41,530 bases of DNA from an uncultured Woeseiaceae bacterium (GCA_964384925.1 CAYLNP010000004.1:1-41530); one strand, 5' to 3'. Positions 29,950-41,530 are shown, counted from the first letter of the stretch. The notes: generated from the letters alone by a model not told the origin. Made by a program: numbers and translations.

Positions 29950-30888
29950 TCAATGTCGTCGCTCGATGATGAAGCGCGCGAGCCCCGCAAGGCCCTCGCC
30001 GGCGCGGCCCAGCGGCGTCAGGGCGGCCAGCGCCTCGTCGAGCAGACGCACGGCCTCACGCCGCGCGCCCTCGAGCCCCAGCAGCGCTGGATAGGTGGCT
30101 TTGTGCAGGCGCTCGTCGGCACCCACACGCTTGCCGGTGGTCGTCTCGTCACCCTCGACATCCAGGATGTCGTCGCGTACCTGAAAGGCCAGGCCGATGC
30201 GATCCGCGTAGGTGGACAGTGCGCTGGCCTGACCTTCATCGGCATGTGCAAGATCGGCCATCATCAGCACGCAGGCCTGTATCAACGCACCGGTCTTGCG
30301 ACGATGTACGGCGGCGAGTTCTTCGAGCGACAGGTCCCGCTCCTCGGCCGCAAGGTCCATGGCCTGACCACCGGCCATGCCGTCGATGCCGCTCGCACCG
30401 GCCAGGCGCCCCACCAGCGCAAGTCGCAACTGCGGATCGGCGATCATGCGGTCATCGCCGGCGAGTACCTCAAACGCCAGCACCTGCAGGGCGTCGCCGG
30501 CCAGGATGGCGGTCGCCTCGTCGAATGCGCGGTGACAGGTGGGCCGGCCGCGACGCAGATCGTCGTCGTCCATGGCCGGCAGGTCGTCATGGATCAGCGA
30601 ATAGGCATGGATCATCTCGACTGCGCAGGCAGGCGCATCCAGACGTTCGATGTCGAGCGCCAGCGCCTCACCGGTGAGATAACACAGCACGGGCCGGATG
30701 CGCTTGCCGGGACCCAGAACGCTGTAGCGCATGGCTTCGAGCAGCCGCGCGGGGCGTCCGGGGCGGGTTGCAAGGCACTGCGTCAGCGCCGTGTCCACCC
30801 GCTGTTTCAGAGACGCGATGCGGCCGGCGATATCCAACCTGGCGCCGCCGTCAGTCGTCAGCGTCGAAGGCGACCGGACGGGCGCCAT
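29950..30888 (-). CDS. ispA: Farnesyl/geranyl diphosphate synthase
   Basis: [37 protein letters not shown] and [10 protein letters not shown]. True start uncertain (possibly TTG at 30837). Confidence 0.95.
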
Positions 30889-31129
30889 CAGCGCTGCCGC
30901 TGAGAATCTCGACCTTCTGTTCTGCCTGGCGCAGGGCCTGCTGGCACTCGCGGGTCAGGCGCACGCCCGTCTCGAACGCCTCCAGTGCCTGCTCGAGCGG
31001 CAATTCACCGCCTTCCAGGCGCACTACAAGCGCCTCGAGCGACTCGAGCGAACGCTCGAAATCCACCGCGCTGGCGGCGTCGCCGGGCACGGCGTCCGGG
31101 GTTTCGTTCGGGGCGGTTTTCCGCGGCAT
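30851..31129 (-). CDS. xseB: Exodeoxyribonuclease VII small subunit
   Basis: [51 protein letters not shown]; usual xseB-ispA-dxs order. Confidence 0.95.
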
Positions 31130-31250
31130 GCAGCCTGCTCCAGATGACGTGGGTCGCGCTGGGCACGACGTGCGGCAGCGTTGGGTACGCTACACACGGC
31201 GCGCAGGGCGGTCAACGCGGCGCGCGCACCACAGGGCACAAGGGCAGCGG

Positions 31251-31302
31251 TTGACAAGGCTGGCGCAGGGGTCTAGCTTTCGAGTGGTTAGACTGAGTCT
31301 AA
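31251..31302 (+). promoter_or_regulatory. Sigma70 promoter plus a 7-1-7 Fur-family (PerR/Irr-like) operator for the rubrerythrin operon
   Basis: TTGACA (31251-31256), 17 nt, TAGCTT (31274-31279), then the perfect inverted repeat TTAGACT-G-AGTCTAA (31288-31302) at the expected start site. Confidence 0.72.
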
Positions 31303-31362
31303 AACTTCGCGTGGGAAATCGGTTTCCCGCGTCGGACATTACAAAGGCAAGGAGCAATCAGC

Positions 31363-31782
31363 ATGGAACTCAAGGGCAGCAAGACAGAGAACAACCTGAA
31401 GGAAGCCTTCGCCGGTGAATCCCAGGCCAACCGCCGTTACCTGTATTTCGCCTCGAAAGCCGATGTCGAGGGCTACAACGATGTGGCCACGGTGTTTCGC
31501 TCGACCGCAGAGGGTGAGACGGGCCATGCGCACGGGCACCTGGAGTACCTCGAAGCCGTGGGTGACCCGGCGACCGGTCTGCCGATCGGCCCCACGTCGC
31601 ACAATCTGAAAGCGGCTGTGGCCGGCGAGACCCACGAGTACACCGACATGTATCCGGGCATGGCCAAGACGGCGCGCGACGAAGGCTTCGACGAGATCGC
31701 CGACTGGTTCGAGACGCTTGCCAAGGCCGAGCGCTCGCATGCCAACCGGTTCCAGAAGGCCCTGGATCAGCTCGACGCCTGA
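31363..31782 (+). CDS. rbr: Short (rubredoxin-less) rubrerythrin
   Basis: [28 protein letters not shown], di-iron motifs ETGH and ERSH, no C-terminal CxxC rubredoxin domain. AAGGAG RBS. Confidence 0.93.
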
Positions 31783-31839
31783 TCTGGCACCGCAGGTCGC
31801 GCTCAGGCGTTTCAGCCCAGCGCGGCCAATGGAGTCGCG

Positions 31840-31869
31840 AACGGGGCGGGCCGCTGCCCGCCCCGTTTT
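31840..31869 (+). terminator. GC-rich hairpin with a short U tract between rbr and the Fe-S oxidoreductase gene
   Basis: AACGGGGCGGGC-CGCT-GCCCGCCCCGTT followed by TT. Confidence 0.6.
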
Positions 31870-31893
31870 CGTATCAACAGCAAGGACCCGTCG

Positions 31894-33243
31894 ATGTCCA
31901 GCAAGCCCCCTGATCAGCAGCGCGAAGGCAGTCTCGACGCGCCCACCCGGCACCCCGTCGACTGGAAATCGCCGGATTTCACCGATGAGGGCGCGCTGTT
32001 CGGTGAACTCGAGCGCGTGTTCGATATCTGCCATGGCTGCCGGCGCTGCTTCAGTCTGTGCAATTCCTTCCCCACCCTGTTCGATGCCGTGGATGAATCC
32101 GATACCGGGGAAGTCGACGGCATGCCGCGCAAGGCGTACTGGGACGTCGTCGACCACTGCTACCTGTGTGACATGTGCTACATGACCAAGTGTCCGTACG
32201 TGCCGCCGCATCCATGGAACGTCGATTTCCCGCATCTGATGCTTCGCGCCAAGGTCGCGAAGTTCAAGGACGGCAAGGTTTCGACGCGAGACAGGATTCT
32301 TTCGGCCACCGATACCCTCGGATCACTCGCCGGCATCCCGGTGGTTGTGCAGGCCGTCAATGCGGCGAATCGCAATGCCACGGCGCGCAAGGTGCTGGAG
32401 AATGTGCTCGGCGTGCATGCACAGGCGCCTGTGCCGCAGTATCACAGCAATACCGCGCGCAAGCGCCTGGCGTCGCTGCATGACGAGACCGGCGAGAGCG
32501 CAGAGGCCGCCGGGGCCACGCGCGGGCGCGCCGTGCTGTTCACCACCTGCTATGGCAACCGCAATCTGCCCGCGATGGCTGAGGATCTGGTAGCGGTGTT
32601 CCGGCACAACGATATTCCGCTGCGGCTTGCCGACACCGAGAAGTGCTGCGGCATGCCGAAGCTCGAGCTCGGCGATCTCGAAGCGGTCGAGAAAGCCAGG
32701 GACATCAATGTGCCGGTGCTTGCCGCGCTGGTGGATGAGGGCTGGGATATCGTCGCCCCGGTGCCGTCCTGTGTGCTGATGTTCAAGCAGGAGCTGCCCC
32801 TGCTGTTCCCCGACGACGAACTGGTGAAGAAAGTGGCCGCGGCCATGTGGGATCCCTTCAACTATCTGATGGCCCGGCACAAGGCAGGCAAGCTCAAGAC
32901 CGATTTCACCAAGGCGCTTGGCAAGATTGCCTACCAGGTGCCCTGTCACCTGCGGGTGCAGAACATCGGCCTGAAGACCCGCGATGTCCTTGAGCTGGTC
33001 CCGGATACGCACGTCGAGGCCATCGAGCGCTGCTCAGGTCACGACGGCACCTATGCAGTGAAGAAGGAGTTCCACGAAGTCTCGCGAAAAATCGCGCAGC
33101 CGGTGGTCCGGCGCGTGGAGAACGCGAAGGCGGAGCATTTCACCAGCGACTGCCCGATGGCGGCTGAACAGATTGCGGCTGGCAGCAAGGATGTGCAGGC
33201 CAGTCACCCGATGAGCCTGCTGCGCCAGGCCTACGGCCTCTGA
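31894..33243 (+). CDS. Rubrerythrin-associated Fe-S oxidoreductase (GlpC/HdrD-like, CCG domains)
   Basis: CHGCRRCFSLC and CYLCDMCYMTKC ferredoxin motifs; CCGMP, PSC, PCH, CSGHDG and DCPMA. Confidence 0.9.
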   Translation: MSSKPPDQQREGSLDAPTRHPVDWKSPDFTDEGALFGELERVFDICHGCRRCFSLCNSFPTLFDAVDESDTGEVDGMPRKAYWDVVDHCYLCDMCYMTKCPYVPPHPWNVDFPHLMLRAKVAKFKDGKVSTRDRILSATDTLGSLAGIPVVVQAVNAANRNATARKVLENVLGVHAQAPVPQYHSNTARKRLASLHDETGESAEAAGATRGRAVLFTTCYGNRNLPAMAEDLVAVFRHNDIPLRLADTEKCCGMPKLELGDLEAVEKARDINVPVLAALVDEGWDIVAPVPSCVLMFKQELPLLFPDDELVKKVAAAMWDPFNYLMARHKAGKLKTDFTKALGKIAYQVPCHLRVQNIGLKTRDVLELVPDTHVEAIERCSGHDGTYAVKKEFHEVSRKIAQPVVRRVENAKAEHFTSDCPMAAEQIAAGSKDVQASHPMSLLRQAYGL

Positions 33244-33259
33244 AGCGACAAGGACGAAC

Positions 33260-33847
33260 ATGAAAAAGCTGACACGCGGAGATCTTTACAGTCTCGAGGA
33301 ATACGCAAGCCTGCGTCCGGAATTCCGGGCCAAGGTGATCGCCCACAAGCAGCATCGCAAGCTGCACATCGGCGAGAACGCCACGCTGTACTTCGAGGAT
33401 CGTCTGACCCTGCAATACCAGGTGCAGGAGATGCTGCGCATCGAACGGGTGTTCGAGGCCCAGGGCATCGAGGATGAACTGGCTGCCTACAATCCGCTGA
33501 TCCCTGATGGCAGCAACCTGAAGGCCACCTTCATGGTGGAGTTCCCGGACACAGACGAGCGTCGCCGTCGGCTCGCCGAGCTGATCGGCATCGAGAAGGG
33601 CACATGGCTGCAGGTCGAAGGCTTCGAGCGTGTGACACCGATCGCCAACGAAGACCTCGAGCGCAGCACCGACGAGAAAACCTCCGCCGTGCATTTCATG
33701 CGCTTCGAGTTCTCTGCGGAGATGATTGCGGCATTTCGCGGCGGCGCGAAGCTCTCTGCGGGCATAGACCACGACCACTATCGCCACACCGTCGATCCGG
33801 TACCCGAGCCGGTGGCGCAGGCGTTGCGGGCGGATTTTCAGGCTTGA
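33260..33847 (+). CDS. DUF3501-family protein
   Basis: YQVQEMLRIE...ELAAYNPLIP...LKAT...KTSAVHFMRF; canonical third gene after the short rbr and the Fe-S oxidoreductase. Confidence 0.87.
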   Translation: MKKLTRGDLYSLEEYASLRPEFRAKVIAHKQHRKLHIGENATLYFEDRLTLQYQVQEMLRIERVFEAQGIEDELAAYNPLIPDGSNLKATFMVEFPDTDERRRRLAELIGIEKGTWLQVEGFERVTPIANEDLERSTDEKTSAVHFMRFEFSAEMIAAFRGGAKLSAGIDHDHYRHTVDPVPEPVAQALRADFQA

Positions 33848-33883
33848 ACAACGCATCCGCCTAGGCGCAGGCACGGCGCGGCG

Positions 33884-34732
33884 ATGGTCGAAATCACCGG
33901 ACTCAACATCTTCCCCGTGAAGTCCCTGCAGGGCATTGCGGTGGACTCCGCCCCGCTGGGTGTACGCGGGCTGGCCTTTGATCGCTGCTGGATGGTGACG
34001 GATTCCACGGGTCGCTTCATGACCCAGCGCGAACTGCCGGCGATGGCCACCATCGGCGTTCGCCTGGCCCCCGAGGCGCTGGTGCTGGAGCACCCGTCGA
34101 CCAGCGCGCTTGTGGTGGATCGCAATGAACCAGGCGGCACGCGAGTGCGGGTGAAGGTCTGGAAGGACGAGTGCCCTGCCTACGACGAGGGTGAGGCGGC
34201 CGCGCGCTGGCTGACGACAGTGCTTGGGACGTGGCGGGACGGGGCTCTGCGGCTGGTACGATTCGCCGATGACCATCGCCGTCCGGTCGACGCACGATAC
34301 CTGCGGGGCGAGCGTTCGCACACCGCCTTCACGGATGGCTTTCCCTTGCTCGTCACCTCCGAGTCCTCGCTGGCGAGTCTCAACGCGCAGCTCGCGGCCA
34401 GTGGCGTAGCCACGGTGCCCATGAACCGGTTCCGCGCCAACATCGTCGTCAGCGGCCTGGCGCCGTTCGAGGAAGATGCACTCGACGCGCTTGTGCCCAC
34501 CGGCGGTGCCTACGAAATCGCCATGCGCAAGCCTTGTCGGCGCTGCGCCATCATCACCACCGATCAGACCGACGGGCTTGTCCCCGATTCTCAGGAACCG
34601 CTGCGTACACTGATGCGCATGAACACGCGCGCTGACATGCCCGGGGCCTTTTTCGGGCAGAACGCCATTGTGCTGAATGCACACGGCGCGACGGTGTCGG
34701 TTGGCGACCAGCTGATACCCACGCGTAATTGA
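33884..34732 (+). CDS. MOSC-domain protein (YcbX/mARC-like)
   Basis: IFPVKS, DRCWMV, FTDGFPLL, RFRANIVV, PCRRC and FGQN motifs. Confidence 0.9.
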   Translation: MVEITGLNIFPVKSLQGIAVDSAPLGVRGLAFDRCWMVTDSTGRFMTQRELPAMATIGVRLAPEALVLEHPSTSALVVDRNEPGGTRVRVKVWKDECPAYDEGEAAARWLTTVLGTWRDGALRLVRFADDHRRPVDARYLRGERSHTAFTDGFPLLVTSESSLASLNAQLAASGVATVPMNRFRANIVVSGLAPFEEDALDALVPTGGAYEIAMRKPCRRCAIITTDQTDGLVPDSQEPLRTLMRMNTRADMPGAFFGQNAIVLNAHGATVSVGDQLIPTRN

Positions 34733-34734
34733 CC

Positions 34735-35355
34735 TCAGTGGAATGTGCCGCTGATCATCGGTCGCAGCTCCACGGCCAGCAGAAGTGTCGCGATGGCGGT
34801 CACCCAGGCCGCCGCCACGCAGGCAATCGTATCTGTCCAGGATGATCGCAATCGCTGGCGGATGGATTCTGCGACTGCGGCGATGCATAACATCATGAAC
34901 GGCGCGCCAGCCAACGAGCCGGCGAGTGTGATGGCAACGGCGCGCATGGGCCCTGGCTCTGGCAGGGACCCAAGACCGACCACCAGCCCCCCGACGGCGC
35001 CCACGAAGATGGCTACACCCTGAGCCCGACTGAAAAAAAGTACGGGCGCAGTCAACAGGACTGCGGCCAAAGGTGCCCAGCCTGTCAGCGCTGCCGTGGG
35101 GACGCTCCGGCCAAACAGGGCGCCTATCGCAAGCGAAGCCGCGAAGGCAGCGAAGGCCGGACGCGCGACGTTCATGCCTCGAAAGCCCAACAGCAGGCCC
35201 ACAACCGAAAGCAGCAGGATGTGCCCAGGCACGGTGAGCGGATGCAGCATGCCCACATAGAAACCTTCGATGCCCGGCACCGGGCTGTGCGCCCAGGCCG
35301 CCGAAGGCGACGCGATGGCACCTGTCAGCAGGATCGATTTCTCGCAAAGCCTCAT
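34735..35355 (-). CDS. Divergent HupE/UreJ-like membrane protein
   Basis: Signal-like N-terminus ending AWA-HSPVPGIEGFYVGMLHPLTVPGH, then several TM helices. ATG at 35355 overlaps the upstream stop (ATGA); the longer track ORF is an N-terminal over-extension. Confidence 0.7.
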   Translation of the reverse strand: MRLCEKSILLTGAIASPSAAWAHSPVPGIEGFYVGMLHPLTVPGHILLLSVVGLLLGFRGMNVARPAFAAFAASLAIGALFGRSVPTAALTGWAPLAAVLLTAPVLFFSRAQGVAIFVGAVGGLVVGLGSLPEPGPMRAVAITLAGSLAGAPFMMLCIAAVAESIRQRLRSSWTDTIACVAAAWVTAIATLLLAVELRPMISGTFH

Positions 35356-35969
35356 CTGATGAGAAACATGACCCCGACCATGGCGACGATGACGCCGCTG
35401 CCGCGCAGGATCCAGCTGCCGGCGCGCCAGTGAATCAGCAGACCCAGCGCCACGCCACCCAGATGCAGTAAGCCGGTGGCGATCACGAAACCCAGCGCGT
35501 AGCCAAACGGGCTGGCCGACGCCGGCAACTCTGTCCCATGTGCGTGACCGTGAAACAATGCAAACAGCGCGACCAGCAGCGCCGCGACGGCCAGCGGCAG
35601 TCGAACCATGAACGCAACCAGTATCCCCAGGGCGAGGGCCGAGACGGCGATAATCGGCTCGACATGTCCGAGAGGTACCCCGACGACCCCGAGTGCTCCG
35701 CCCACCGCCATGATCAGCGGGAACGTCACGGGCAGAAGCCAAAGAGCCGGCGCGCGGAGTATTGCGCCCCACATGCCGACGGCCACCATGGCAACGAGGT
35801 GATCGACCCCCAGTACGGGGTGCACGAGACCGGCCAGGAATCCACCGTCATGGTCGTGGTCCGCATGCGCCAGTACGTCCGGCGCCCACAGAATCAGCCC
35901 GGCGAGCAGTCCGGCCAGGACTATTCGTTCGGCGAGAAAGCCCGGCGCATTATCGGTATTCAGTCTCAT
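35352..35969 (-). CDS. HupE/UreJ-family Ni/Co-binding membrane protein
   Basis: AHADHDHD, HPVLGVDH, FHGHAHGTE and ATGLLHLGG. ATG at 35969 behind GGAGG. Confidence 0.92.
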   Translation of the reverse strand: MRLNTDNAPGFLAERIVLAGLLAGLILWAPDVLAHADHDHDGGFLAGLVHPVLGVDHLVAMVAVGMWGAILRAPALWLLPVTFPLIMAVGGALGVVGVPLGHVEPIIAVSALALGILVAFMVRLPLAVAALLVALFALFHGHAHGTELPASASPFGYALGFVIATGLLHLGGVALGLLIHWRAGSWILRGSGVIVAMVGVMFLIR

Positions 35970-36013
35970 CACACCCCTCCGCTCGGATTGCAGATTCAAT
36001 GGTCTTCGGAAAC

Positions 36014-37069
36014 TCAGCTGCCGAGTACAGCGAGCCGTTGCAGTAACCAGAATGCAGCGGTTCCGCCAATGACATAACCGACGACCGGAGTTCCGAGTGA
36101 CGAGTATGTCGACGCGACAGGAAAAAGCCGCAGTGGCTTAGCCCACCAGACTGAACGAACCAACCCAAGGTACAGAAGCATCACTGTGGCGAACGCCAGC
36201 TGGCCAACTTCGATGCCAAGATTGAAAAAAAGCAAGGCACCAGGGATCTGGGTCTGCGGCAAGCCGATCTCGTTCAATACGCTGGCGAAGCCGAAGCCGT
36301 GCAGAAGACCGAAGATCAGTGAGACGAGGATCGGAAACCGCCATGCAAGCGTATCGCGTCGACGCCGGACGAGTTCCGCTGCAAGCATGACGACGCTCAG
36401 TGCGATACATGCCTCCATGGGGGCCACGGGCAGTCGTACGATGTCCAGTGCTGACAGACCCAGTGTCACGGAGTGGGCCAGCGTAAAGCCGGTAATCGCC
36501 AGTGCAATGCGCGGCAGCGTGCCGGCGATCCAGAGCAGGCAGACAACGAACAGCAGGTGGTCTATGCCTGTCAGGATGTGCTTGATGCCAAGCGTCATGT
36601 AGGCTGCCGCGACGCCACCGAATGTTTCGGGCGAGGGCAGGGCTATCCGTGTTTCGTCCGGCCCCGCCGCCAGCATGCGATGCTCGCCGCTGAGCCACGT
36701 GATGCCGACCAGGATGTTCAGCGCGGGATTGAACTCGGGGTATCTGAGGATCAGCTCGGCCGACGCCAGGCCGTCATCGCAGGAATAGAATTCTGACAGT
36801 GCCTCAGCGGGATAGTCCTTATCCGCGCCGGGTACCTGGCGGTCGACGCGATCGCACGATGCACCCAGAAGTTCCACTTCGGGAAGTGCGCGTATGGACA
36901 CAATTGGTGGCAGTTTCGTGCTGATCCTGAACAGGTTCGGTGCGTGTTCCACGATTTCCAGATACATCGGTCGCAGATCATGAGCGTTGGCGACGAAGCA
37001 GCCGAGGGAGAGGTACAGCGTCACCGCTGGTATGGTCAACGCGCGCGAAACGTGGCTTGCTCGCCTCAC
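36014..37069 (-). CDS. HupE/UreJ_2-type membrane protein with an N-terminal extracytoplasmic domain
   Basis: Signal peptide ending ANA-HD, soluble domain, then GIKHILTGIDHLLF, FTLAHSVTL, FGLLHGFGFA and FNLGIEVGQL. Confidence 0.88.
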   Translation of the reverse strand: MRRASHVSRALTIPAVTLYLSLGCFVANAHDLRPMYLEIVEHAPNLFRISTKLPPIVSIRALPEVELLGASCDRVDRQVPGADKDYPAEALSEFYSCDDGLASAELILRYPEFNPALNILVGITWLSGEHRMLAAGPDETRIALPSPETFGGVAAAYMTLGIKHILTGIDHLLFVVCLLWIAGTLPRIALAITGFTLAHSVTLGLSALDIVRLPVAPMEACIALSVVMLAAELVRRRRDTLAWRFPILVSLIFGLLHGFGFASVLNEIGLPQTQIPGALLFFNLGIEVGQLAFATVMLLYLGLVRSVWWAKPLRLFPVASTYSSLGTPVVGYVIGGTAAFWLLQRLAVLGS

Positions 37070-37923
37070 TGTCGGTTGGCCTTGTCCGGTCCGGGCATCT
37101 CGATCGCGTAGTTGCGTCGCATCTCCGAGAAAACAGCCGAACGAAGCTCACGACGCCGATTCTCGAGATATTCACTTCTGACCTCGAACGCCACGTCCTC
37201 GAAAGCCGCATCACGTGATGGGGTACGTGTTCTGATCAGGACCAGGTGCACACCGAAACCGGATTCGACCGGACCTTGCCAGCTCCCGGCAGGCAACTCG
37301 AATAATCGCTCGGCAAATGCCCTGCCGAACTGGCGCGCCACGTCCCGCTTCGTCGTAGCCTCATGGCTCGGGCGTATCGGCGGGACGTCTCCCAGACCAT
37401 CGGCATCCGAGACCGCGGTGGCGCGAAGCGCCTCGAGAAGTGCCTGGGCATCCTCCGACAGACAGTCTCCGCGCGCATCCCGATCCAGGAAGACATGCGT
37501 GAACGACATCTGCTCCGGCGTGGCGAACCGTGCCGCATGCTCCGCAAAGTAGGCGCGCAAGTCGGCTTGCGTGGGCTCGGCAGGAATGCCCGCGTCGATA
37601 ATGGCGAACGCCTCCATCTTTCTTGCCAGTCGCTGTCGTACGACTGCATCGTTTCGGTCCAGGCCGCGTGCCAGCGCCTCCCGGTAGAGCACCTCCTCGC
37701 GCAGGTACTCCTGGATCAAAACCTCGCGTTCCAGGTCATCAGGAGGCCGGCGCCACTGGCGAACGAAGTCGCGTTCAAGCCGGTTGACAAGCGCTGCATC
37801 GACGACGATACGGTTCACCGACACTTCGTCCGGCGCCTGTGCCAGCATCGAGTACGCTGCAAACAGCAGACTGCCGATGATCACGAAGTGGACCAGTGGC
37901 TCCCTGACCAGCAGCCTCAGCAT
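37066..37923 (-). CDS. Membrane-anchored parvulin-type peptidyl-prolyl isomerase/foldase (Rotamase_2-like)
   Basis: REPLVHF plus TM anchor, REEVLYREALARGLD, FGRAFAERLF and WQGPVESGFGVHLV. Confidence 0.88.
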   Translation of the reverse strand: MLRLLVREPLVHFVIIGSLLFAAYSMLAQAPDEVSVNRIVVDAALVNRLERDFVRQWRRPPDDLEREVLIQEYLREEVLYREALARGLDRNDAVVRQRLARKMEAFAIIDAGIPAEPTQADLRAYFAEHAARFATPEQMSFTHVFLDRDARGDCLSEDAQALLEALRATAVSDADGLGDVPPIRPSHEATTKRDVARQFGRAFAERLFELPAGSWQGPVESGFGVHLVLIRTRTPSRDAAFEDVAFEVRSEYLENRRRELRSAVFSEMRRNYAIEMPGPDKANRQ

Positions 37924-37950
37924 GCGGGAGACGCAACCACGAGTTGAAAG

Positions 37951-39948
37951 CTAGTCCCCGGCGAGCGGCGCATACCAGATCGGCGAAGTCCAGGCCATTT
38001 CCTGGATGGTTCTGGGCGCGTCGTTCTGGCAGGCTGCGGGGCGTTCGTCAGGGGGTAGGGCGACGCACTGCGCCCAGTTCCAACGCAGGGTCGGCACTTC
38101 GACCACGCGCAGGTAATAGTAGGTCGATTCCGCCGGATCGAAAGCCGTGTCTTCGAACACCGCACACAGCGATGTCGACCCCTCGCCAGTCCACTGGCCC
38201 GTGAGGAGGTTGATCTGTCCGTCGGAGCTATCCGAACCCGCCACGTCGAAAACCTCGTAGCGCGCCTGGCCCGAAGTATCGATCCATCCCTTGATGATCT
38301 GCAGCTTCTGCAGCGCGGCGCCGTCGGGATCCCTGACTGCCGAGGCCAGCAACCGCGGCTTGCCCGATGCCGTGGCCGGCGGCAGGTCGCTGCCCATAGG
38401 GACGCCATGGGCGTATCCGTGCTCCGGCAGATCCGCGAGATTGCAAGCTTTGTCGTCAATATCCCAGCCGGCAAACAGGCGAGGTTGAATGCGCGTGCCC
38501 GAGGTGCCGAAGACCTCGCGCCTGCGCATGGCCTCGAACAGCGCATCGCGAGAGTTCTCTACCGCCCAGATGCCGGCCAGGCCTCCGGGATTGCTGACGA
38601 GAGACTGTGGAGAAAAAAGCCCGGCCCTGAGACGCGCCTCGAGCTCGGTCTCAGGCACGAGGTGTCCTGGCCAGTCCGCCTCATCCGTGGCGCCCGCCAG
38701 CGCCAGGTGAGTATCCGTCGATCCGATCGCTCCCAACTTGTATGGATTCACGCCGATGGCCGCCTCGTCCTGAAGGCCGGTCAGCAGCACGCTGCGGAAG
38801 AAGTCGTTCCTCGAGACACAGCCCACGGCAGCAAAGCCGCGTCGGCCGATTTCCCCTTCCTCGCAGAACCTCAGTTCGTAGGTTTCCCCGAAGATCAGGC
38901 GACGCTCGCCGACTGCCCGCACCTGCTCGAACTCGCACAGCTCATCCGGCGCGCCGAGAATTCCCGGGAAACCATTGAAGCACTCGGAGTTCCCCTTGTG
39001 CTGGAAGATCTCCATGATCGGCTCCATGGCAGCCTGCAGACGGGCCGCGGCCGGAGCGAATTCTGCGGTCTCGGAGCCGGCCGCATAGGAAGGGAACATC
39101 GACCCGGAACTCAGGTTGGAATTGTGCGGGATCACCAGCACGTCGCACCCGTCAACTGCGTTCAGGCACTCATCGGTGAGCGCGTTCCACAGGTCAAGAC
39201 CTCTCGGGGCGTCAATGTAGGAGATGGCGCGCGCCGGTACGTCGGCATTGCGGAAAATGACGTTGCGGTGATAGTTGTTGGAATTGGGTGTGCCGGTATG
39301 CTCATAACCGACAAAGGTGGTGAACTCGCAGCGCGCCGAGCGATCGTAGGCCTCCTCGGCCATCTGCTGCGTCGCTTTCCACAGCGGGCTGGCCGACTCG
39401 ACGCATGCAGCGGGGTCCTCGCCGCAGATTTCCTCGACCTGATAAGGAGAGTCGGTGAGCAGGCTGTTCACGAACAGCATGAACATATCTCCGCCACTTC
39501 CGCGCATGTACACGCAGGCTTCCTGCTCATACACGCTGCTGGAGGGGTCCATGCACAGCCCCAATTCGCCAAAGAACTCGGCATGGTCGGTGACGGCGGC
39601 GAAATCCAGGGGTGTCCGCAGCTGCAGGGTCGCCGTCTCTTTCCCACTGTCGTCGAAGGGCGGAACACCGATCGAGCCGCCCCGGGCGAAGCGGTAGGCG
39701 TCGGCCGGTGTCGTGGTCGAGCCGAAGGGGCTTACGTCGTAGGAGAAGCCTGTGTGGATATGCAGGTCGCCGAAGTAGGCGTTCCGAGTGGCGCTGCGCT
39801 CGGTGCAGGGGTCTCGTGCTTCCGTGTAGACCACCAGCGCATCGGATGATGCCACCTGCTGAGAGGTGGCAGTTTCTACAGCCTCAACATAGCCACAGCA
39901 TAGCGCTGCTACGCCCGCGACCAGTAACGAGCCAGACATTCTGTACAT
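37951..39948 (-). CDS. DUF3604-family exported PHP-like metallohydrolase
   Basis: Signal peptide; FGDLHIHTGFSYD, LDFAAVTDHAE, GYEHT, HRNVIF, IPHNSNLS, EIFQHKGNSE, GSTDTH and IQEMAWTSPIWY. Confidence 0.87.
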   Translation of the reverse strand: MYRMSGSLLVAGVAALCCGYVEAVETATSQQVASSDALVVYTEARDPCTERSATRNAYFGDLHIHTGFSYDVSPFGSTTTPADAYRFARGGSIGVPPFDDSGKETATLQLRTPLDFAAVTDHAEFFGELGLCMDPSSSVYEQEACVYMRGSGGDMFMLFVNSLLTDSPYQVEEICGEDPAACVESASPLWKATQQMAEEAYDRSARCEFTTFVGYEHTGTPNSNNYHRNVIFRNADVPARAISYIDAPRGLDLWNALTDECLNAVDGCDVLVIPHNSNLSSGSMFPSYAAGSETAEFAPAAARLQAAMEPIMEIFQHKGNSECFNGFPGILGAPDELCEFEQVRAVGERRLIFGETYELRFCEEGEIGRRGFAAVGCVSRNDFFRSVLLTGLQDEAAIGVNPYKLGAIGSTDTHLALAGATDEADWPGHLVPETELEARLRAGLFSPQSLVSNPGGLAGIWAVENSRDALFEAMRRREVFGTSGTRIQPRLFAGWDIDDKACNLADLPEHGYAHGVPMGSDLPPATASGKPRLLASAVRDPDGAALQKLQIIKGWIDTSGQARYEVFDVAGSDSSDGQINLLTGQWTGEGSTSLCAVFEDTAFDPAESTYYYLRVVEVPTLRWNWAQCVALPPDERPAACQNDAPRTIQEMAWTSPIWYAPLAGD

Positions 39949-39969
39949 CGGTCATCCCCCTGCTGAGGT

Positions 39970-41034
39970 TCAGTCCCGCGCCACCCGGAAGCCGAACGTG
40001 AACCTGCGATCCGTGGCATTCATCTTCAGCCTGAACGCAGGCCGCGTACTCGCCGCGATCGCCGTCCAGCCCTGTCCGCGCATCACGCGCAGACCGCAGT
40101 CCGCACCGGTGAGTCTCGCCGCCTGGTTGGAAGGCGCGTCGCTGTGGTCGTCGTTCCAGCAATCGGCAACCCACTCATTGGCGTTGCCCAGCATGCCATG
40201 CAGACCGAAGGGGTTTGCAGCCGTTTCGTGAACGGGCGCTGTCGTTGCATGGCCGTCGCGACAGTCCTCTCCTTTCCAGTTGTCCATCATCTCGTACTTG
40301 ATCTCGGTTTGGTCCCAGCCGAAGCGCTCCCGTGTGGTAATGTCGCCGAGATTAACGAACTCACATATTTGTTCGGGGTCGTCACCGAACCAGTAAACAG
40401 TCTGGGTGCCGGCGCGCACTGCATACTCCCACTCCGATTCGCTCGCCAGTCGGTAGGGTTGGCCGGTCTTGCTGCCCAGCCAGGCTAGATATGCCTGTGC
40501 GTCGAGCCAGTTAACACAGGTGACCGGATGCCCGTCGCCCTGGTCGATGCCGGCGTCCTGCCAGTTTCGAGCCTCATCGAACAACCACTCGCTGCCCACG
40601 AAGTGCCAGCACCCCGGGGCCGGTGAATAGCCGGTCGCTGCGACAAACTGCGCGAACTCGCCTCGGGAGACCTCGTATTTCCCAAGATAGAACGGCCGCT
40701 CCACGGTCACACGATGCACGGGCTGCTCACGTGTGGCCCAGAATTCCGGCAAGCCGAGCTTGCGCGGCTCCGTGATATCGGCACCCATCAGAAATTCGCC
40801 GGCAGGGATCAGTACCAATTCGGGGCAGGTCGTGCAGTCGCGAGTCACCTCGGTGACAGCGATATTGGAGGTGCGCTTCTCCGGAGGCTGGCCGGCGACC
40901 AGGCTCGTGCTTGAACACAGCGCGATACAGCCGAGCACGGCTCGCAATAGGACTGCGGGGCAGCTTGCCGGCTGTGCACTGGCGGCGCTAGCTTGAACGT
41001 GAGTGTGTCGCCCGGTGATATCCGCGATCATCAT
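39970..41034 (-). CDS. Formylglycine-generating-enzyme (SUMF1/EgtB/PvdO) domain protein, probably exported
   Basis: RDCTTCPELVLIPAGEFLMG, PVTCVNWLDA, RLASESEWEYA, NPFGLHGMLGNANEW and FGFRVARD. Likely ATG at 41034/41031 behind GAGGGG; hydrophobic stretch before the domain. Confidence 0.88.
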   Translation of the reverse strand: MMIADITGRHTHVQASAASAQPASCPAVLLRAVLGCIALCSSTSLVAGQPPEKRTSNIAVTEVTRDCTTCPELVLIPAGEFLMGADITEPRKLGLPEFWATREQPVHRVTVERPFYLGKYEVSRGEFAQFVAATGYSPAPGCWHFVGSEWLFDEARNWQDAGIDQGDGHPVTCVNWLDAQAYLAWLGSKTGQPYRLASESEWEYAVRAGTQTVYWFGDDPEQICEFVNLGDITTRERFGWDQTEIKYEMMDNWKGEDCRDGHATTAPVHETAANPFGLHGMLGNANEWVADCWNDDHSDAPSNQAARLTGADCGLRVMRGQGWTAIAASTRPAFRLKMNATDRRFTFGFRVARD

Positions 41035-41224
41035 GGCCCCTCGGCAGCTCCGCGCCAACTCGTTGCGCATCGCTGCCCAGTATGACGCAACGAGCCTATT
41101 GACCTTATGCATTGTGCGCATGAGGGCGGTCGTCATTCGAATTGTTATATTTGCCGACATCCCGATAATCTCAACTGGTTCGCGTGCGAATGCTTCTGTG
41201 TGCGCTTACCTACAGGTGTCGCCA

Positions 41225-41530
41225 ATGATCAATACTCTGCGCCAAGCCCTTGTTCGAGACTTGGTCGTGTCACGCGGAGCGTCGGAGAACTTTGCAGCGG
41301 ATTCCATAGACGCCCGCCGTCGTCAGCTGCTGGGTGGAGCGCCGCTGGCCCTGGCCGGTCTTGGCATGCTCCCAGGCAGTCTGAATGCATCCACGGTTAG
41401 TCAATTCCCTCCGTACGACGATGGATTTATCCACTTAACGGACGCCCGCGAAAAGTTCACCGCACTGTTCAGACTCGAGCGCGACCTTCGAGACGAAGGC
41501 ACGGCGCTGTCGACCTACCAGTTTCTGATG
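41225..41530 (+). CDS. Partial Tat-signal protein, tentatively DUF1838-like; runs off the right edge
   Basis: Manual translation, open to the window end: MINTLRQ...DARRRQLLGGAPLALAGLGMLPGSLNA...IHLTDAREKFTALFRLERDLRDEG. Twin-arginine motif plus hydrophobic stretch. The family guess rests only on resemblance. Confidence 0.55.
   Translation, partial: MINTLRQALVRDLVVSRGASENFAADSIDARRRQLLGGAPLALAGLGMLPGSLNASTVSQFPPYDDGFIHLTDAREKFTALFRLERDLRDEGTALSTYQFLM

Follow-up and report, generated by a model that had tools for sequence, protein, structure and literature searches.

The conserved core of the cassette described here is a triad of genes for a DUF3604 protein, a Rotamase_2 parvulin and a HupE_UreJ_2 permease, a widespread module to which the other three genes of the cassette are local add-ons. 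The triad is an undescribed gene module, and we found no paper describing it. In the window, by which we mean the whole 41,530-nt stretch of DNA analysed, all six genes are co-oriented on the minus strand with gaps of at most 44 nt (Table 1). The spacings from the FGE-domain gene to gene 6, taken from the coordinates, are 21, 27, -4, 44 and -4 nt; genes, spacings and domain families are as an initial reading of the sequence alone (the sequence-only reading) had them. The window showed no Rfam riboswitch and no regulatory signal indicative of any metal, and promoter and terminator matches there were at chance level only.

Table 1. Coordinates of the six cassette genes and of neighbouring features in the window
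Feature	Position	Strand	Description
Gene 1, PvdO-like FGE-fold protein	39970-41034	-	354 aa; PF03781 187.3 bits, 5.1e-55
Gene 2, DUF3604	37951-39948	-	665 aa; PF12228 521.7 bits, 3.1e-156
Gene 3, Rotamase_2 parvulin	37066-37923	-	285 aa; PF13145 58 bits, 2.2e-15
Gene 4, HupE_UreJ_2 permease	36014-37069	-	351 aa; PF13795 148.7 bits, 1.5e-43
Gene 5, classical HupE/UreJ permease	35352-35969	-	205 aa; PF04955 192.4 bits, 6.2e-57
Gene 6, divergent HupE/UreJ-like membrane protein	34735-35355	-	206 aa; PF04955 only 15.6 bits
Indel block versus closest relative L001	33838-36022	.	MOSC gene plus genes 6 and 5; blastn
MOSC gene	33884-34732	+	MOSC_N plus MOSC by Pfam; inside indel block
Truncated gene, divergently transcribed, twin-arginine-like signal	41225-41530	+	102-aa stub without Pfam match

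Among 401 evenly drawn Pseudomonadota genomes, we found 33 full-length DUF3604 genes in 21 genomes. Within 5 kb, 23 of these 33 genes have a triad-type parvulin as well as a PF13795 match, giving at least one complete triad set in 18 of the 21 genomes, so the DUF3604-PPIase-HupE neighbourhoods that the sequence-only reading had mentioned from other genomes are real and far above chance. For 18 of the 23 linked genes, the parvulin is separated from DUF3604 by 6-78 nt. Twenty canonical loci were fetched as well; because these were picked for adjacency, only their gene order (DUF3604, parvulin, permease) and their flanks, which are unrelated, are informative. Partner genes also adjoin DUF3604 in loci titled Myxococcota, Binatia, Thermodesulfobacteriota and Limnocylindria. 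The same survey, which had been suggested as a check on co-occurrence, found the linkage to be independent of urease and hydrogenase: of 20 other DUF3604 genomes, eight have a strong urease alpha match and one a full NiFe hydrogenase, and 10 of the 11 with neither carry an adjacent triad. Urease and hydrogenase had been noted as missing from the window, and we found neither the urease alpha subunit nor NiFe hydrogenase even in the whole of its own genome (93% complete).

The association is asymmetric. Across the 401 genomes, a parvulin profile scored at least 135 bits at 26 places, with the next match at 80 bits (a 113-bit fragment at a contig end was left out). A HupE_UreJ_2 match lies within about 0.5 kb of 25 of these places and DUF3604 within 1.4 kb of 22. 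The genome also has a full-length DUF3604 for 24 of them; the remaining two are in G247, beside a DUF3604 remnant, and in G293, with an in-frame stop. DUF3604 itself also occurs alone. Five complete genomes that carry the closest relatives of the window protein (53-63% identical) gave no match to PF13795, and their parvulin hits were all generic ones of PpiD size at 46-62 bits; in the tree the window falls in a large clade with 35 rows without partners versus eight with them. The predicted ligands are all conserved in DUF3604 proteins both with and without partners. Given these helper-less genomes and the retained ligands, the enzyme evidently can fold, and presumably metallate, without helpers, and the accessory genes are not needed across the family as a whole. 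Since DUF3604 stands alone in some genomes and the helpers are nearly confined to DUF3604 genomes, the parvulin and permease look like dedicated but dispensable accessories.

The DUF3604 protein of the window is present as a single copy in its genome. Its PF12228 match spans model positions 3-591 of 591 (cut-off 20.4 bits), and the remaining 32 full-length proteins sampled all score higher, at 657-822 bits, placing the window protein on a divergent branch. It has a hydrophobic N-terminal signal and 18 cysteines; all 43 aligned DUF3604 N-termini are hydrophobic and signal-like, with a lipobox-like motif in approximately 18. The PHP-like motifs read earlier are present as D61-L-H63-I-H65, T-D121-H122, H275-N and D412-T-H414, with their His/Asp ligand residues invariant; the columns invariant across the 43 proteins are H63, H65, D71, D121, H122, E216, H227, H275, D412 and H414. 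No sequence match to any solved chain was detectable. The AF2 model (pLDDT 90.5, pTM 0.91) found 3E38 as its best Foldseek match (E 7.7e-05), and its closest structures by VIA were BVU_3505 (3E38, Z 16.0, 231 aligned, rmsd 3.7) and TM0559 (2ANU, Z 14.4, 215 aligned, rmsd 3.8). The next PHP proteins ranged from Z 12.2 down to 6.2, including RNase AM (9ETK, 8.4) and YcdX (1M65, 6.5), with unrelated TIM-like barrels at 5.0 or below.

Judged by this model, DUF3604 has the PHP superfamily fold, a distorted (beta/alpha)7 barrel. The fold and the invariant ligand columns support the earlier assignment of DUF3604 as an exported metallohydrolase, here of PHP type with a predicted trinuclear metal site and a C-terminal Ig-like beta-sandwich. 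With the PHP phosphoesterases, among whose closest known members are also the histidinol-phosphate phosphatases, it shares the barrel, the HxH at the first strand and an Asp/His/Glu set fitting a three-metal site, and 3E38 likewise carries a second beta-sandwich domain. Unlike them, DUF3604 is exported and has the many cysteines noted above, and large insertions bring it to roughly double their length. We take its ligands to pair one-to-one with those of YcdX. By default, PHP-fold enzymes hydrolyse phosphoesters, and the metals in solved PHP enzymes are as a rule Zn, Mn or Fe. According to a 2026 preprint, metal binding had not been reported for the DUF3604 family (10.64898/2026.10.18.759936).

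Gene 3 is a candidate for the dedicated foldase of the triad, a single-pass membrane-anchored parvulin of the SurA/PpiD/PrsA-like kind as judged from its sequence. The anchor that had been assigned to it corresponds to a single hydrophobic segment near the N-terminus (residues 10-28), and the PF13145 match covers residues 117-244 (cut-off 27 bits). The R-E-P-L-x-H-F motif of the transmembrane segment is conserved, with its His in 21 of 24 sequences. W215, G217, P218, S221, G224 and H226 are invariant or nearly so. Among the presumed catalytic residues, both G178-D and the C-terminal S221-x-x-G224-x-H226 are kept, and the window protein has His at the first His position, where many homologues have Gln.

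The first 4 nt of the permease gene are shared with the end of the parvulin gene. The permease has a signal peptide, a putative mature N-terminal His30, an Ig-like periplasmic domain at residues about 34-144 and a PF13795 match at residues 157-306 (cut-off 24.5 bits); the signal-peptide junction reads A-N-A followed by H30-D, the cleavage site being placed by alignment. In the model (pLDDT 81.4), the N-domain resembles ZrgA (8EZW, Z 7.6), PA4063 (7AHW, Z 7.3) and the anglerase permeases' Ang-1 domain (9GCE, Z 6.4, 105 aligned, rmsd 3.7, 6% identity, in a Z range that is common for this tool), with His30 aligned beside residue 2 of 9GCE. Ang-1 binds Cu (Kd 74 nM) and Ni (220 nM) through His1, which is 100% conserved in that domain (PMC12537917, Franco Cairo et al., Nat Commun 2025). 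In section 8 of that paper, these are the only metals measured for this nearest characterised relative of gene 4; the paper also names ZrgA, cited as 8F1B, as the nearest structural neighbour of Ang-1. Gene 4 resembles the Ang-1-HupE/UreJ-2 permeases in its architecture of signal peptide, putative first mature His, Ig-like beta-sandwich and PF13795 membrane domain. The triad permeases differ in that a profile of 25 of them, searched against PDB sequences, did not match 9GCE, and their N-terminal position is His in 15 of 25 and Asp in 10 of 25.

Predictions of a parvulin-permease complex gave a median ipSAE of 0.58 (runs 0.58, 0.63 and 0.49) against 0.00 for the best of three controls, with at least 77% of contacts in common between runs and partner pLDDT of at least 81. 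Of 157 solved complexes used in calibration, 116 reached the tool's mark, as did 2 of 215 mismatched pairs; only 18 of the 157 solved complexes passed at 0.60 or below, and so did both passing mismatches. The prediction lends weak support to a parvulin-permease complex. A docking complex with no metal traffic, in which the permease domain is an anchor or a conduit for a non-metal substrate or product of the enzyme, could be built from the same parts. The short gaps reported above, with genes translationally coupled or nearly so in many loci, suggest stoichiometric subunits; many DUF3604 homologues are lipoprotein-like themselves; and the permease N-domain has no invariant metal ligand save position 1, His or Asp. 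We nevertheless consider this unlikely, since the membrane domain keeps the invariant His, Asp and Glu residues of the HupE family (H164, D170, H171, H199, E219, E232, H257 and E287, besides N283 and Q290), which is hard to square with a mere anchor.

Building on gene anatomy, folds, conserved ligands and the conserved yet asymmetric linkage, we give about an even chance to the triad being a three-gene envelope module in which the two helpers fold the exported DUF3604 protein and supply or exchange its metal. The enzyme is a cysteine-rich hydrolase of the PHP fold that carries the ligands of a trinuclear centre and, at its C-terminal end, an Ig-like domain. The parvulin and the anglerase-like permease would sit together in the inner membrane as a physical complex, act as chaperones on this cysteine-rich client after its export, and hand over or exchange the ions of its active site. 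The occurrence asymmetry, with the parvulin nearly confined to DUF3604 genomes, is what argues for accessory status. Counting against maturation are the Asp at position 1 of many triad permeases, the helper-less DUF3604 genes and the weak-band complex score, as does the published model for anglerase permeases, in which metal is taken up into the cell and not delivered to a periplasmic client.

A more specific and distinctly more tentative version is that the triad is an assembly line for metal centres outside the cytoplasm, filling the three-metal site before periplasmic Zn or Cu can mis-metallate it. The membrane parvulin would hold the unfolded, Sec-exported PHP enzyme at the permease, which would present a metal that competes poorly (Mn, Fe, Co or Ni), taken either from inside the cell or from the permease's own 'fishing' domain with its His/Asp tip; the extra HupE pair of this genome may feed the same line. 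If true, exported enzymes would have a new way of acquiring their correct metal, an old problem.

The closest known systems to the triad are the anglerase Ang-1-HupE/UreJ-2 permeases, as described in the main text of PMC12537917, and E. coli ycdX-ycdY-ycdZ, as described in PMC4464133, which encodes a PHP zinc phosphatase, a dedicated chaperone and an inner-membrane protein. Like the triad, ycdXYZ places a PHP enzyme gene beside those of a dedicated helper and a small inner-membrane protein, and YcdY is reported to take part in Zn-cofactor maturation of the trinuclear enzyme YcdX (PMC4464133). By analogy, no nearer functional precedent is known to us for a maturation factor dedicated to a PHP enzyme. 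Unlike the triad proteins, however, YcdX is cytoplasmic, YcdY belongs to the TorD/DmsD family and is not a parvulin, and YcdZ is a DUF1097 protein and not HupE-like, leaving no homologous counterpart except the PHP fold. For the anglerases, metal uptake is proposed (PMC12537917), compared with enzyme maturation for the triad. The neighbourhood survey in that paper names DUF4198, indigoidine-A-like proteins and PfkB kinases, and the words DUF3604, prolyl, isomerase and rotamase are absent from its main text.

Capture and uptake is the only published model for Ang-HupE/UreJ-2 permeases (PMC12537917, section 8), and the triad could accordingly be read as an uptake route, with DUF3604 hydrolysing an imported periplasmic compound (for example a metal chelate, or an ester of the organophosphate or organosulfate kind), HupE_UreJ_2 catching the freed ion with its periplasmic domain and importing it into the cytoplasm, and the parvulin being only a folding helper. 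The neighbours at the 76 closest DUF3604 loci do look like a periplasmic import or catabolism setting, with TonB-dependent receptors (14), PepSY_TM (7), DUF1838 arrays (13 loci), beta-lactamase-family proteins (15) and alpha/beta hydrolases (13) recurring. Such permeases also have a life of their own: in G133, genes for HupE, a degenerate HupE and a 397-aa HupE_UreJ_2 protein stand in tandem in a genome with no DUF3604. The TonB-receptor and DUF1838 contexts, however, are mostly at DUF3604 genes without a permease, and the families common to the 20 canonical loci include no Pfam-proven TonB-dependent receptor, with one TonB-like protein. The occurrence asymmetry also fits helpers serving an enzyme better than an enzyme serving a permease. 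We therefore regard the uptake route as rather doubtful.

Genes 5 and 6 form a separate two-gene module, probably a general metal permease of the Ni/Co type. Classical HupE/UreJ proteins are nickel or cobalt permeases, for example HupE of Rhizobium leguminosarum. Like these, gene 5 is a full PF04955 member with both His motifs (HPxxGxDH and FHGHAHG), and its mature N-terminus is His-rich; unlike them, it is in a genome without detected hydrogenase or urease and is paired with a degenerate paralogue, a pairing of which we know of no description. Gene 6 is coupled to gene 5 by an ATGA overlap, keeps the first motif as HPxxxxxH and lacks the second. The sequence-only reading had counted three HupE/UreJ-type proteins. 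This stands for genes 4 and 5; gene 6 falls below the Pfam cut-off (23 bits) and is nonetheless probably a divergent member, given that its homologues in L102 and L103 (31-33% identity), each directly after a classical HupE, pass it with 39.2 and 38.6 bits. In 5.8 billion proteins, gene 6 has 14 homologues.

Comparison with the closest relative by blastn aligned window positions 30083-33837 and 36023-41530 and nothing between, which marks a 2.2-kb indel with no flanking repeats at its junctions. L001 keeps the FGE gene and the triad at 85-90% nucleotide identity without genes 5 and 6, which tblastn found in none of the 76 related loci; a pair of this type recurs without DUF3604 in G133 and G350. 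These observations weigh against the proposal that all six genes work as one system, with three HupE/UreJ proteins and a foldase loading Ni or Co into periplasmic DUF3604 and the FGE protein as a further maturation factor. Apart from co-orientation and close spacing, that proposal draws on the Ni affinity of Ang-1 (PMC12537917), on the HupE-type pair adjoining a HupE_UreJ_2 gene in G133, and on the lack of an obvious canonical client for the classical HupE pair, in that its genome (93% complete) has no match to urease alpha, NiFe hydrogenase, CobN or CbiX. Ni-SOD and nitrile hydratase also gave no match in this genome, and control genomes were likewise without a match for both families. Against it, Cu and not Ni is the tightest Ang-1 binder (PMC12537917), the habitual metals of solved PHP enzymes are others, and the FGE gene is rare. 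Therefore, the six genes are not one conserved cassette, as had been supposed, and we consider a six-gene Ni/Co-loading system very improbable.

The FGE-like gene lies 21 nt upstream of DUF3604 and, among the 76 related loci, occurs only in two, L001 and L002; no FGE is among the gene families common to the 20 canonical loci. The PF03781 match covers positions 2-255 of 255, and the N-terminus is signal- or lipoprotein-like. The best solved relative is PvdO (5HHA, 7.1e-39, two aligned stretches, residues 63-354), the periplasmic FGE-fold protein of pyoverdine maturation in Pseudomonas aeruginosa, ahead of FGE itself (1.8e-17). The catalytic Cys pair of FGE sits in the C-terminal segment; gene 1 and its two orthologues have no Cys after C313, in the last 41 residues, a trait shared with PvdO. 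We thus rejected gene 1 as a formylglycine generator, with this pair missing and PvdO closer than FGE. As for possible clients, no sulfatase (PF00884) was found in the 93%-complete genome, and the C/S-x-P/A-x-R motif is absent from all six cassette proteins. Unlike PvdO, gene 1 scores under the NCBIfam cut-off (NF051459, 172.9 versus 500 bits), with no pyoverdine context visible in the window. From its sequence, we classify it as a PvdO-like, lineage-specific add-on.

Beyond gene 1, the counterpart in L001 of the truncated gene at the window's end (L001:7629-8618) matches DUF1838 (Pfam, 9.5e-12). It is the first of four DUF1838 genes there, after which comes a Tat CN_hydrolase.

The window, which is the entire 41.5-kb contig of a 3.03-Mb parent assembly (93% complete), carries six genes in one orientation on the minus strand at 34735-41034, and the spacings computed from the gene coordinates (21, 27, -4, 44 and -4 nt) are identical to those of a sequence-only reading. 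That reading took the six genes for a single cassette, an exported Ni/Co metallohydrolase with its own foldase and metal-loading machinery. The single cassette has to be given up: tblastn searches for the other five window proteins around the closest 76 of 446 confirmed relatives of the window DUF3604 found the FGE-domain protein at two loci, those of the nearest relatives L001 and L002, and genes 5 and 6 at none, and these last two genes lie in an indel absent from L001. The run is composite: a conserved module joined by two local additions. We regard the six-gene Ni/Co system as highly improbable. The lesson is that a six-gene operon can look neat and still be such a composite. Scans of 33800-41530 gave two promoter-like sites (1.5 expected) and four terminator-like sites (5.1 expected), with no internal promoter or terminator signal between genes 4 and 5, and an Rfam scan of the whole window gave no match to cobalamin, NiCo or other riboswitches.

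Coordinates of the six genes, their flanks and the comparison features
Feature	Coordinates	Strand	Details
Gene 1, FGE-domain protein	39970-41034	-	354 aa; PF03781, 5.1e-55
Gene 2, DUF3604	37951-39948	-	665 aa; PF12228, 3.1e-156
Gene 3, Rotamase_2 parvulin	37066-37923	-	285 aa; 2.2e-15
Gene 4, HupE_UreJ_2	36014-37069	-	351 aa; 1.5e-43
Gene 5, classical HupE_UreJ	35352-35969	-	205 aa; 6.2e-57
Gene 6, membrane protein	34735-35355	-	206 aa; below PF04955 cut-off
HupE + degenerate HupE pair, window	34735-35969
HupE + degenerate HupE pair, L102 (G133:C58)	336-2783
HupE + degenerate HupE pair, L103 (G350:C2)	577-2040
CCG-domain Fe-S oxidoreductase-like gene and DUF3501 gene, window	31894-33847	+	449 aa and 195 aa
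Truncated gene with Tat-like signal, window	41225-41530	+	divergent from the six-gene run
Four-DUF1838 array, L001	3722-8618	-	headed by the counterpart of the truncated gene
Parvulin and permease beside DUF3604 remnant	G247:C12:454243-456335		remnant of 113 aa with in-frame TGA
Interrupted parvulin	G293:C9:13302-14937		in-frame TAA

The conserved module is a triad of DUF3604, the Rotamase_2 parvulin and the HupE_UreJ_2 permease. Among the 76 related loci, the parvulin was matched at 17, the permease at 12 and at least one of these two helpers at 21; many loci have short flanks, so these counts are lower bounds. We also searched an unbiased sample of 401 evenly drawn Pseudomonadota genomes with PF12228, PF13795 and a triad-parvulin profile, taking distances from coordinates. 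The DUF3604 family is large and widespread in the environment, and the triad offers it a concrete, testable context: next to the 446 confirmed relatives, 21 of the 401 genomes hold 33 full-length genes, and at least one complete triad set was found in 18 of the 21. The sequence-only reading named DUF3604-isomerase-HupE neighbourhoods in other genomes, and the survey bore this out, with both partners within 5 kb of 23 of the 33 full-length genes. Usually DUF3604 comes first, followed after 6-78 nt by the parvulin and then by the permease, whose PF13795 match begins about 450 nt past the parvulin, the span of its N-terminal domain. Twenty canonical loci, fetched for adjacency of the pair and hence triad-bearing by construction, have near-constant gene order and unrelated flanking genes, and Pfam identified no FGE protein or classical PF04955 HupE among the gene families common to at least two of them. 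Judging by record titles, partner-bearing loci beyond Pseudomonadota come from Myxococcota, Binatia, Thermodesulfobacteriota and Limnocylindria.

Occurrence within the triad is asymmetric. Across the 401 genomes the triad-parvulin profile reached at least 135 bits at 26 places; leaving aside a fragment of 113 bits at the end of a contig, the next match scored 80 bits. Nearly all of the 26 adjoin a HupE_UreJ_2 gene (25), 22 lie at most 1.4 kb from DUF3604 and 24 are in genomes carrying full-length DUF3604. HupE_UreJ_2 is a wider family, since just 21 of 99 strong PF13795 matches are near DUF3604. DUF3604 also occurs by itself: the five complete chromosomes that encode it at 53-63% identity to the window protein have no PF13795 match and contain generic PpiD-size parvulins (46-62 bits) with none of the triad type. 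These helper-less chromosomes (G401-G405, with DUF3604 loci L009, L011, L012, L033 and L030) are 2.5-3.4 Mb long, and one has at least two DUF3604 copies (L033, L076); the neighbouring genes encode beta-lactamase-family, alpha/beta-hydrolase, OsmC and TonB-receptor proteins. Two decaying triads, one with an intact parvulin and permease beside a DUF3604 remnant (G247) and one with an interrupted parvulin in a genome without DUF3604 (G293), suggest loss of the enzyme and then decay of the helpers.

A FastTree phylogeny of 80 DUF3604 proteins (SH-like supports only, midpoint root) separates two main clades; rows shorter than 560 aa or longer than 760 aa were omitted, removing 17 ORFs that include several Myxococcota and Binatia loci with triad partners. 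The canonical clade has the triad in 20 of 21 rows, partly through selection, and the window's clade comprises 35 rows without partners, eight with them and 16 whose short flanks allow no judgement. At least six changes of the triad label are needed on this tree, in which the window, L001 and Glaciecola L005 carry the triad within a clade that mostly shed the helpers. The L005 record belongs to Glaciecola sp. 33A, a culturable carrier in which the triad adjoins a DUF3604 of 59-61% identity to that of the window. The occurrence pattern fits dispensable accessory factors serving DUF3604. We give about an even chance to a triad composed of an exported PHP hydrolase and two dedicated, dispensable inner-membrane helpers: DUF3604 is the exported hydrolase, of the PHP superfamily of metal-dependent phosphoesterases, and the parvulin and permease, together in the inner membrane, would aid its folding once exported and help to fill its metal site. 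Should loading by the helpers prove true, it would stand as a rare instance of dedicated periplasmic metallation of a Sec-exported enzyme. That DUF3604 instead feeds the permease is unlikely in our judgement, since the asymmetric occurrence favours maturation helpers; such an uptake route would match the uptake model in the main text of the paper on the anglerase (Ang-1-HupE/UreJ-2) permeases (PMC12537917) and the TonB-receptor, PepSY_TM and DUF1838 contexts around helper-less DUF3604 genes, and it would be a new route of metal or nutrient acquisition in marine and soil bacteria.

We know of no function, metal or structure for DUF3604. An AlphaFold model built from a 43-sequence alignment (pLDDT 90.5, pTM 0.91) gave, in an exhaustive structural search, 3E38 (Z 16.0, 231 residues aligned, rmsd 3.7), 2ANU (14.4) and PsfC (12.2), followed by EndoQ (10.9), 3O0F (9.9), RNase AM (8.4), polymerase III PHP domains (about 8) and YcdX (6.5); the best Foldseek match is likewise 3E38 (E 7.7e-05). 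Searching the sequence against all PDB chains returned no match at E of 1 or below. Residues H63, H65, D71, D121, H122, E216, H227, H275, D412 and H414 are invariant in both clades, and together with the fold matches to PHP structures they uphold the PHP-like metal ligands read from the sequence. All 43 aligned N-termini are signal-like, in line with the signal peptide read from the sequence; about 18 of them have a lipobox-like motif. The window protein scores about 520 bits on the Pfam model, compared with 657-822 for the sample's remaining 32 full-length matches, and contains 18 cysteines; extra conserved cysteines are numerous in its clade.

In the gene 4 model (pLDDT 81.4) residues 34-144 form a beta-sandwich, and a helical bundle comes after it. 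Structurally the sandwich resembles two periplasmic zinc-binding proteins, ZrgA (Z 7.6; also the top Foldseek match for this domain) and PA4063 (7.3), as well as the Ang-1 domain with bound copper, 9GCE (6.4; residues 31-147 of the model on 2-156 of the chain); all three Z values are in a range that the tool calls common. No sequence match to 9GCE came from a profile built on 25 triad permeases. Invariant in the membrane domain are H164, D170, H171, H199, E219, E232, H257, N283, E287 and Q290, and the first mature residue of the triad permeases is His in 15 of 25 and Asp in ten. The parvulin keeps its C-terminal S-x-x-G-x-H motif, with His or Gln at the first catalytic His position, and has a conserved R-E-P-L-x-H-F motif near the transmembrane segment (His in 21 of 24 sequences), which is unusual for a mere anchor. 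Complex prediction weakly supports a parvulin-permease contact, with a median ipSAE of 0.58 (runs 0.58, 0.63 and 0.49; best of three controls 0.00), at least 77% of contacts in common between runs and partner pLDDT of at least 81. In calibration the tool's mark was passed by 116 of 157 solved complexes and two of 215 mismatches, and scores of 0.60 or below that reach it include only 18 of the 157 solved complexes and both passing mismatches. We consider a docking complex that carries no metal traffic quite unlikely.

The HupE_UreJ_2 linkage is independent of hydrogenase and urease. The window's own genome has no match for urease alpha, NiFe hydrogenase, CobN or CbiX; it also has none for Ni-SOD or nitrile hydratase alpha, two results that are uninformative because control genomes gave no match either. 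Among 20 other DUF3604 genomes, urease alpha has a strong match in eight (177-197 bits) and a fragment barely over the cut-off in three more, and a full NiFe hydrogenase is present in one. Neither enzyme occurs in 11 of the 20, and ten of these 11 have an adjacent triad, which argues that the triad permease is not accessory to either; service to urease or hydrogenase is ruled out by this survey and the window's own genome. Zn, Mn or Fe are the usual metals of PHP enzymes. For the Ang-1 domain, the main text of the anglerase paper gives affinities of 74 nM for Cu and 220 nM for Ni (PMC12537917).

The closest known systems are the Ang-1-HupE/UreJ-2 anglerases (PMC12537917) and PHP phosphoesterases, and a functional precedent is E. 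coli ycdX-ycdY-ycdZ, in which maturation of a Zn-dependent PHP phosphatase involves a dedicated chaperone (PMC4464133). A search of full-text literature, including the main text of the anglerase paper, found no description of the triad as one unit; the words DUF3604, prolyl, isomerase and rotamase are absent from that main text. Full-text literature yielded no mention of PF12228, and the passages found in articles naming DUF3604 or anglerase do not link DUF3604 to the permease or the parvulin; one such article lists a Chlamydia gene under DUF3604 in a table. Titles combining HupE, UreJ and peptidyl-prolyl looked unrelated, and 10.64898/2026.10.18.759936 states that metal binding is so far unreported for the DUF3604 family. 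Through the triad, the anglerase permeases, described recently, gain a first candidate client. New with this window are the composite make-up of the run and its indel, a HupE pair that is independent, sister genomes lacking the helpers, and the alternation of His and Asp.

The indel is seen by blastn against L001 (85-90% nucleotide identity), in which window 30083-33837 and 36023-41530 align with no alignment between them; the L001 permease gene runs straight into the DUF3501 gene. The 2.2 kb absent from L001 hold genes 6 and 5 and a plus-strand MOSC gene. Repeats at the junctions (33838 and 36022) are short, chance-like matches only, so that either an insertion here or a deletion in L001 may have occurred. 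The CCG-domain/DUF3501 pair, syntenic with L001 and followed there by a rubrerythrin-like ORF, is unrelated to the cassette and marks the indel edge.

Three HupE/UreJ-type proteins had been read in the run. Genes 4 and 5 do exceed their Pfam cut-offs; gene 6 itself falls short (15.6 bits on PF04955 against 23), and its homologues in two other genomes pass (39.2 and 38.6 bits), so it is probably a divergent member of the HupE/UreJ proteins. The second His motif is missing from its sequence and was evidently lost. Direct BLASTP to gene 5 gives a 33-residue match only (E 0.018), and 14 relatives were found among 5.8 billion proteins. In the 401 genomes the two homologues each directly follow a classical HupE, and the pair is present at all three places where the gene 6 family was found; this recurrence marks HupE plus degenerate HupE as a separate two-gene module. 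In G133, a genome without a DUF3604 match, a 397-aa HupE_UreJ_2 gene follows as third member, making two instances so far of the pair beside such a gene. The pair, with HupE_UreJ_2 in G133, may form a heteromeric metal permease.

Gene 1 is conserved only within the window's immediate lineage. It is closer to PvdO, the FGE-fold pyoverdine-maturation protein (5HHA, 7.1e-39), than to human FGE (1.8e-17), and scores 172.9 bits against a PvdO equivalog cut-off of 500. None of three orthologues has a cysteine after C313, the C-terminal part in which the catalytic Cys pair of FGE sits, and none of the six cassette proteins has a C/S-x-P/A-x-R motif. With both the motif and the C-terminal cysteines absent, the idea that the FGE protein modifies DUF3604 is rejected. 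No sulfatase was matched in the window's genome, at 93% completeness. Elsewhere, a type-I sulfatase gene (PF00884, representative 6e-48) adjoins the triad in four of the 20 canonical loci (L086, L091, L095 and L096, from genomes G107, G259 and G188 of two genera); with the window's FGE-like gene, this small and related sample hints at sulfated substrates. Upstream of gene 1, the counterpart in L001 of the window's truncated gene heads an array that includes a Tat-signal CN_hydrolase, and DUF1838 is the most repeated neighbour of the window-type DUF3604 clade (34 genes at 13 loci).
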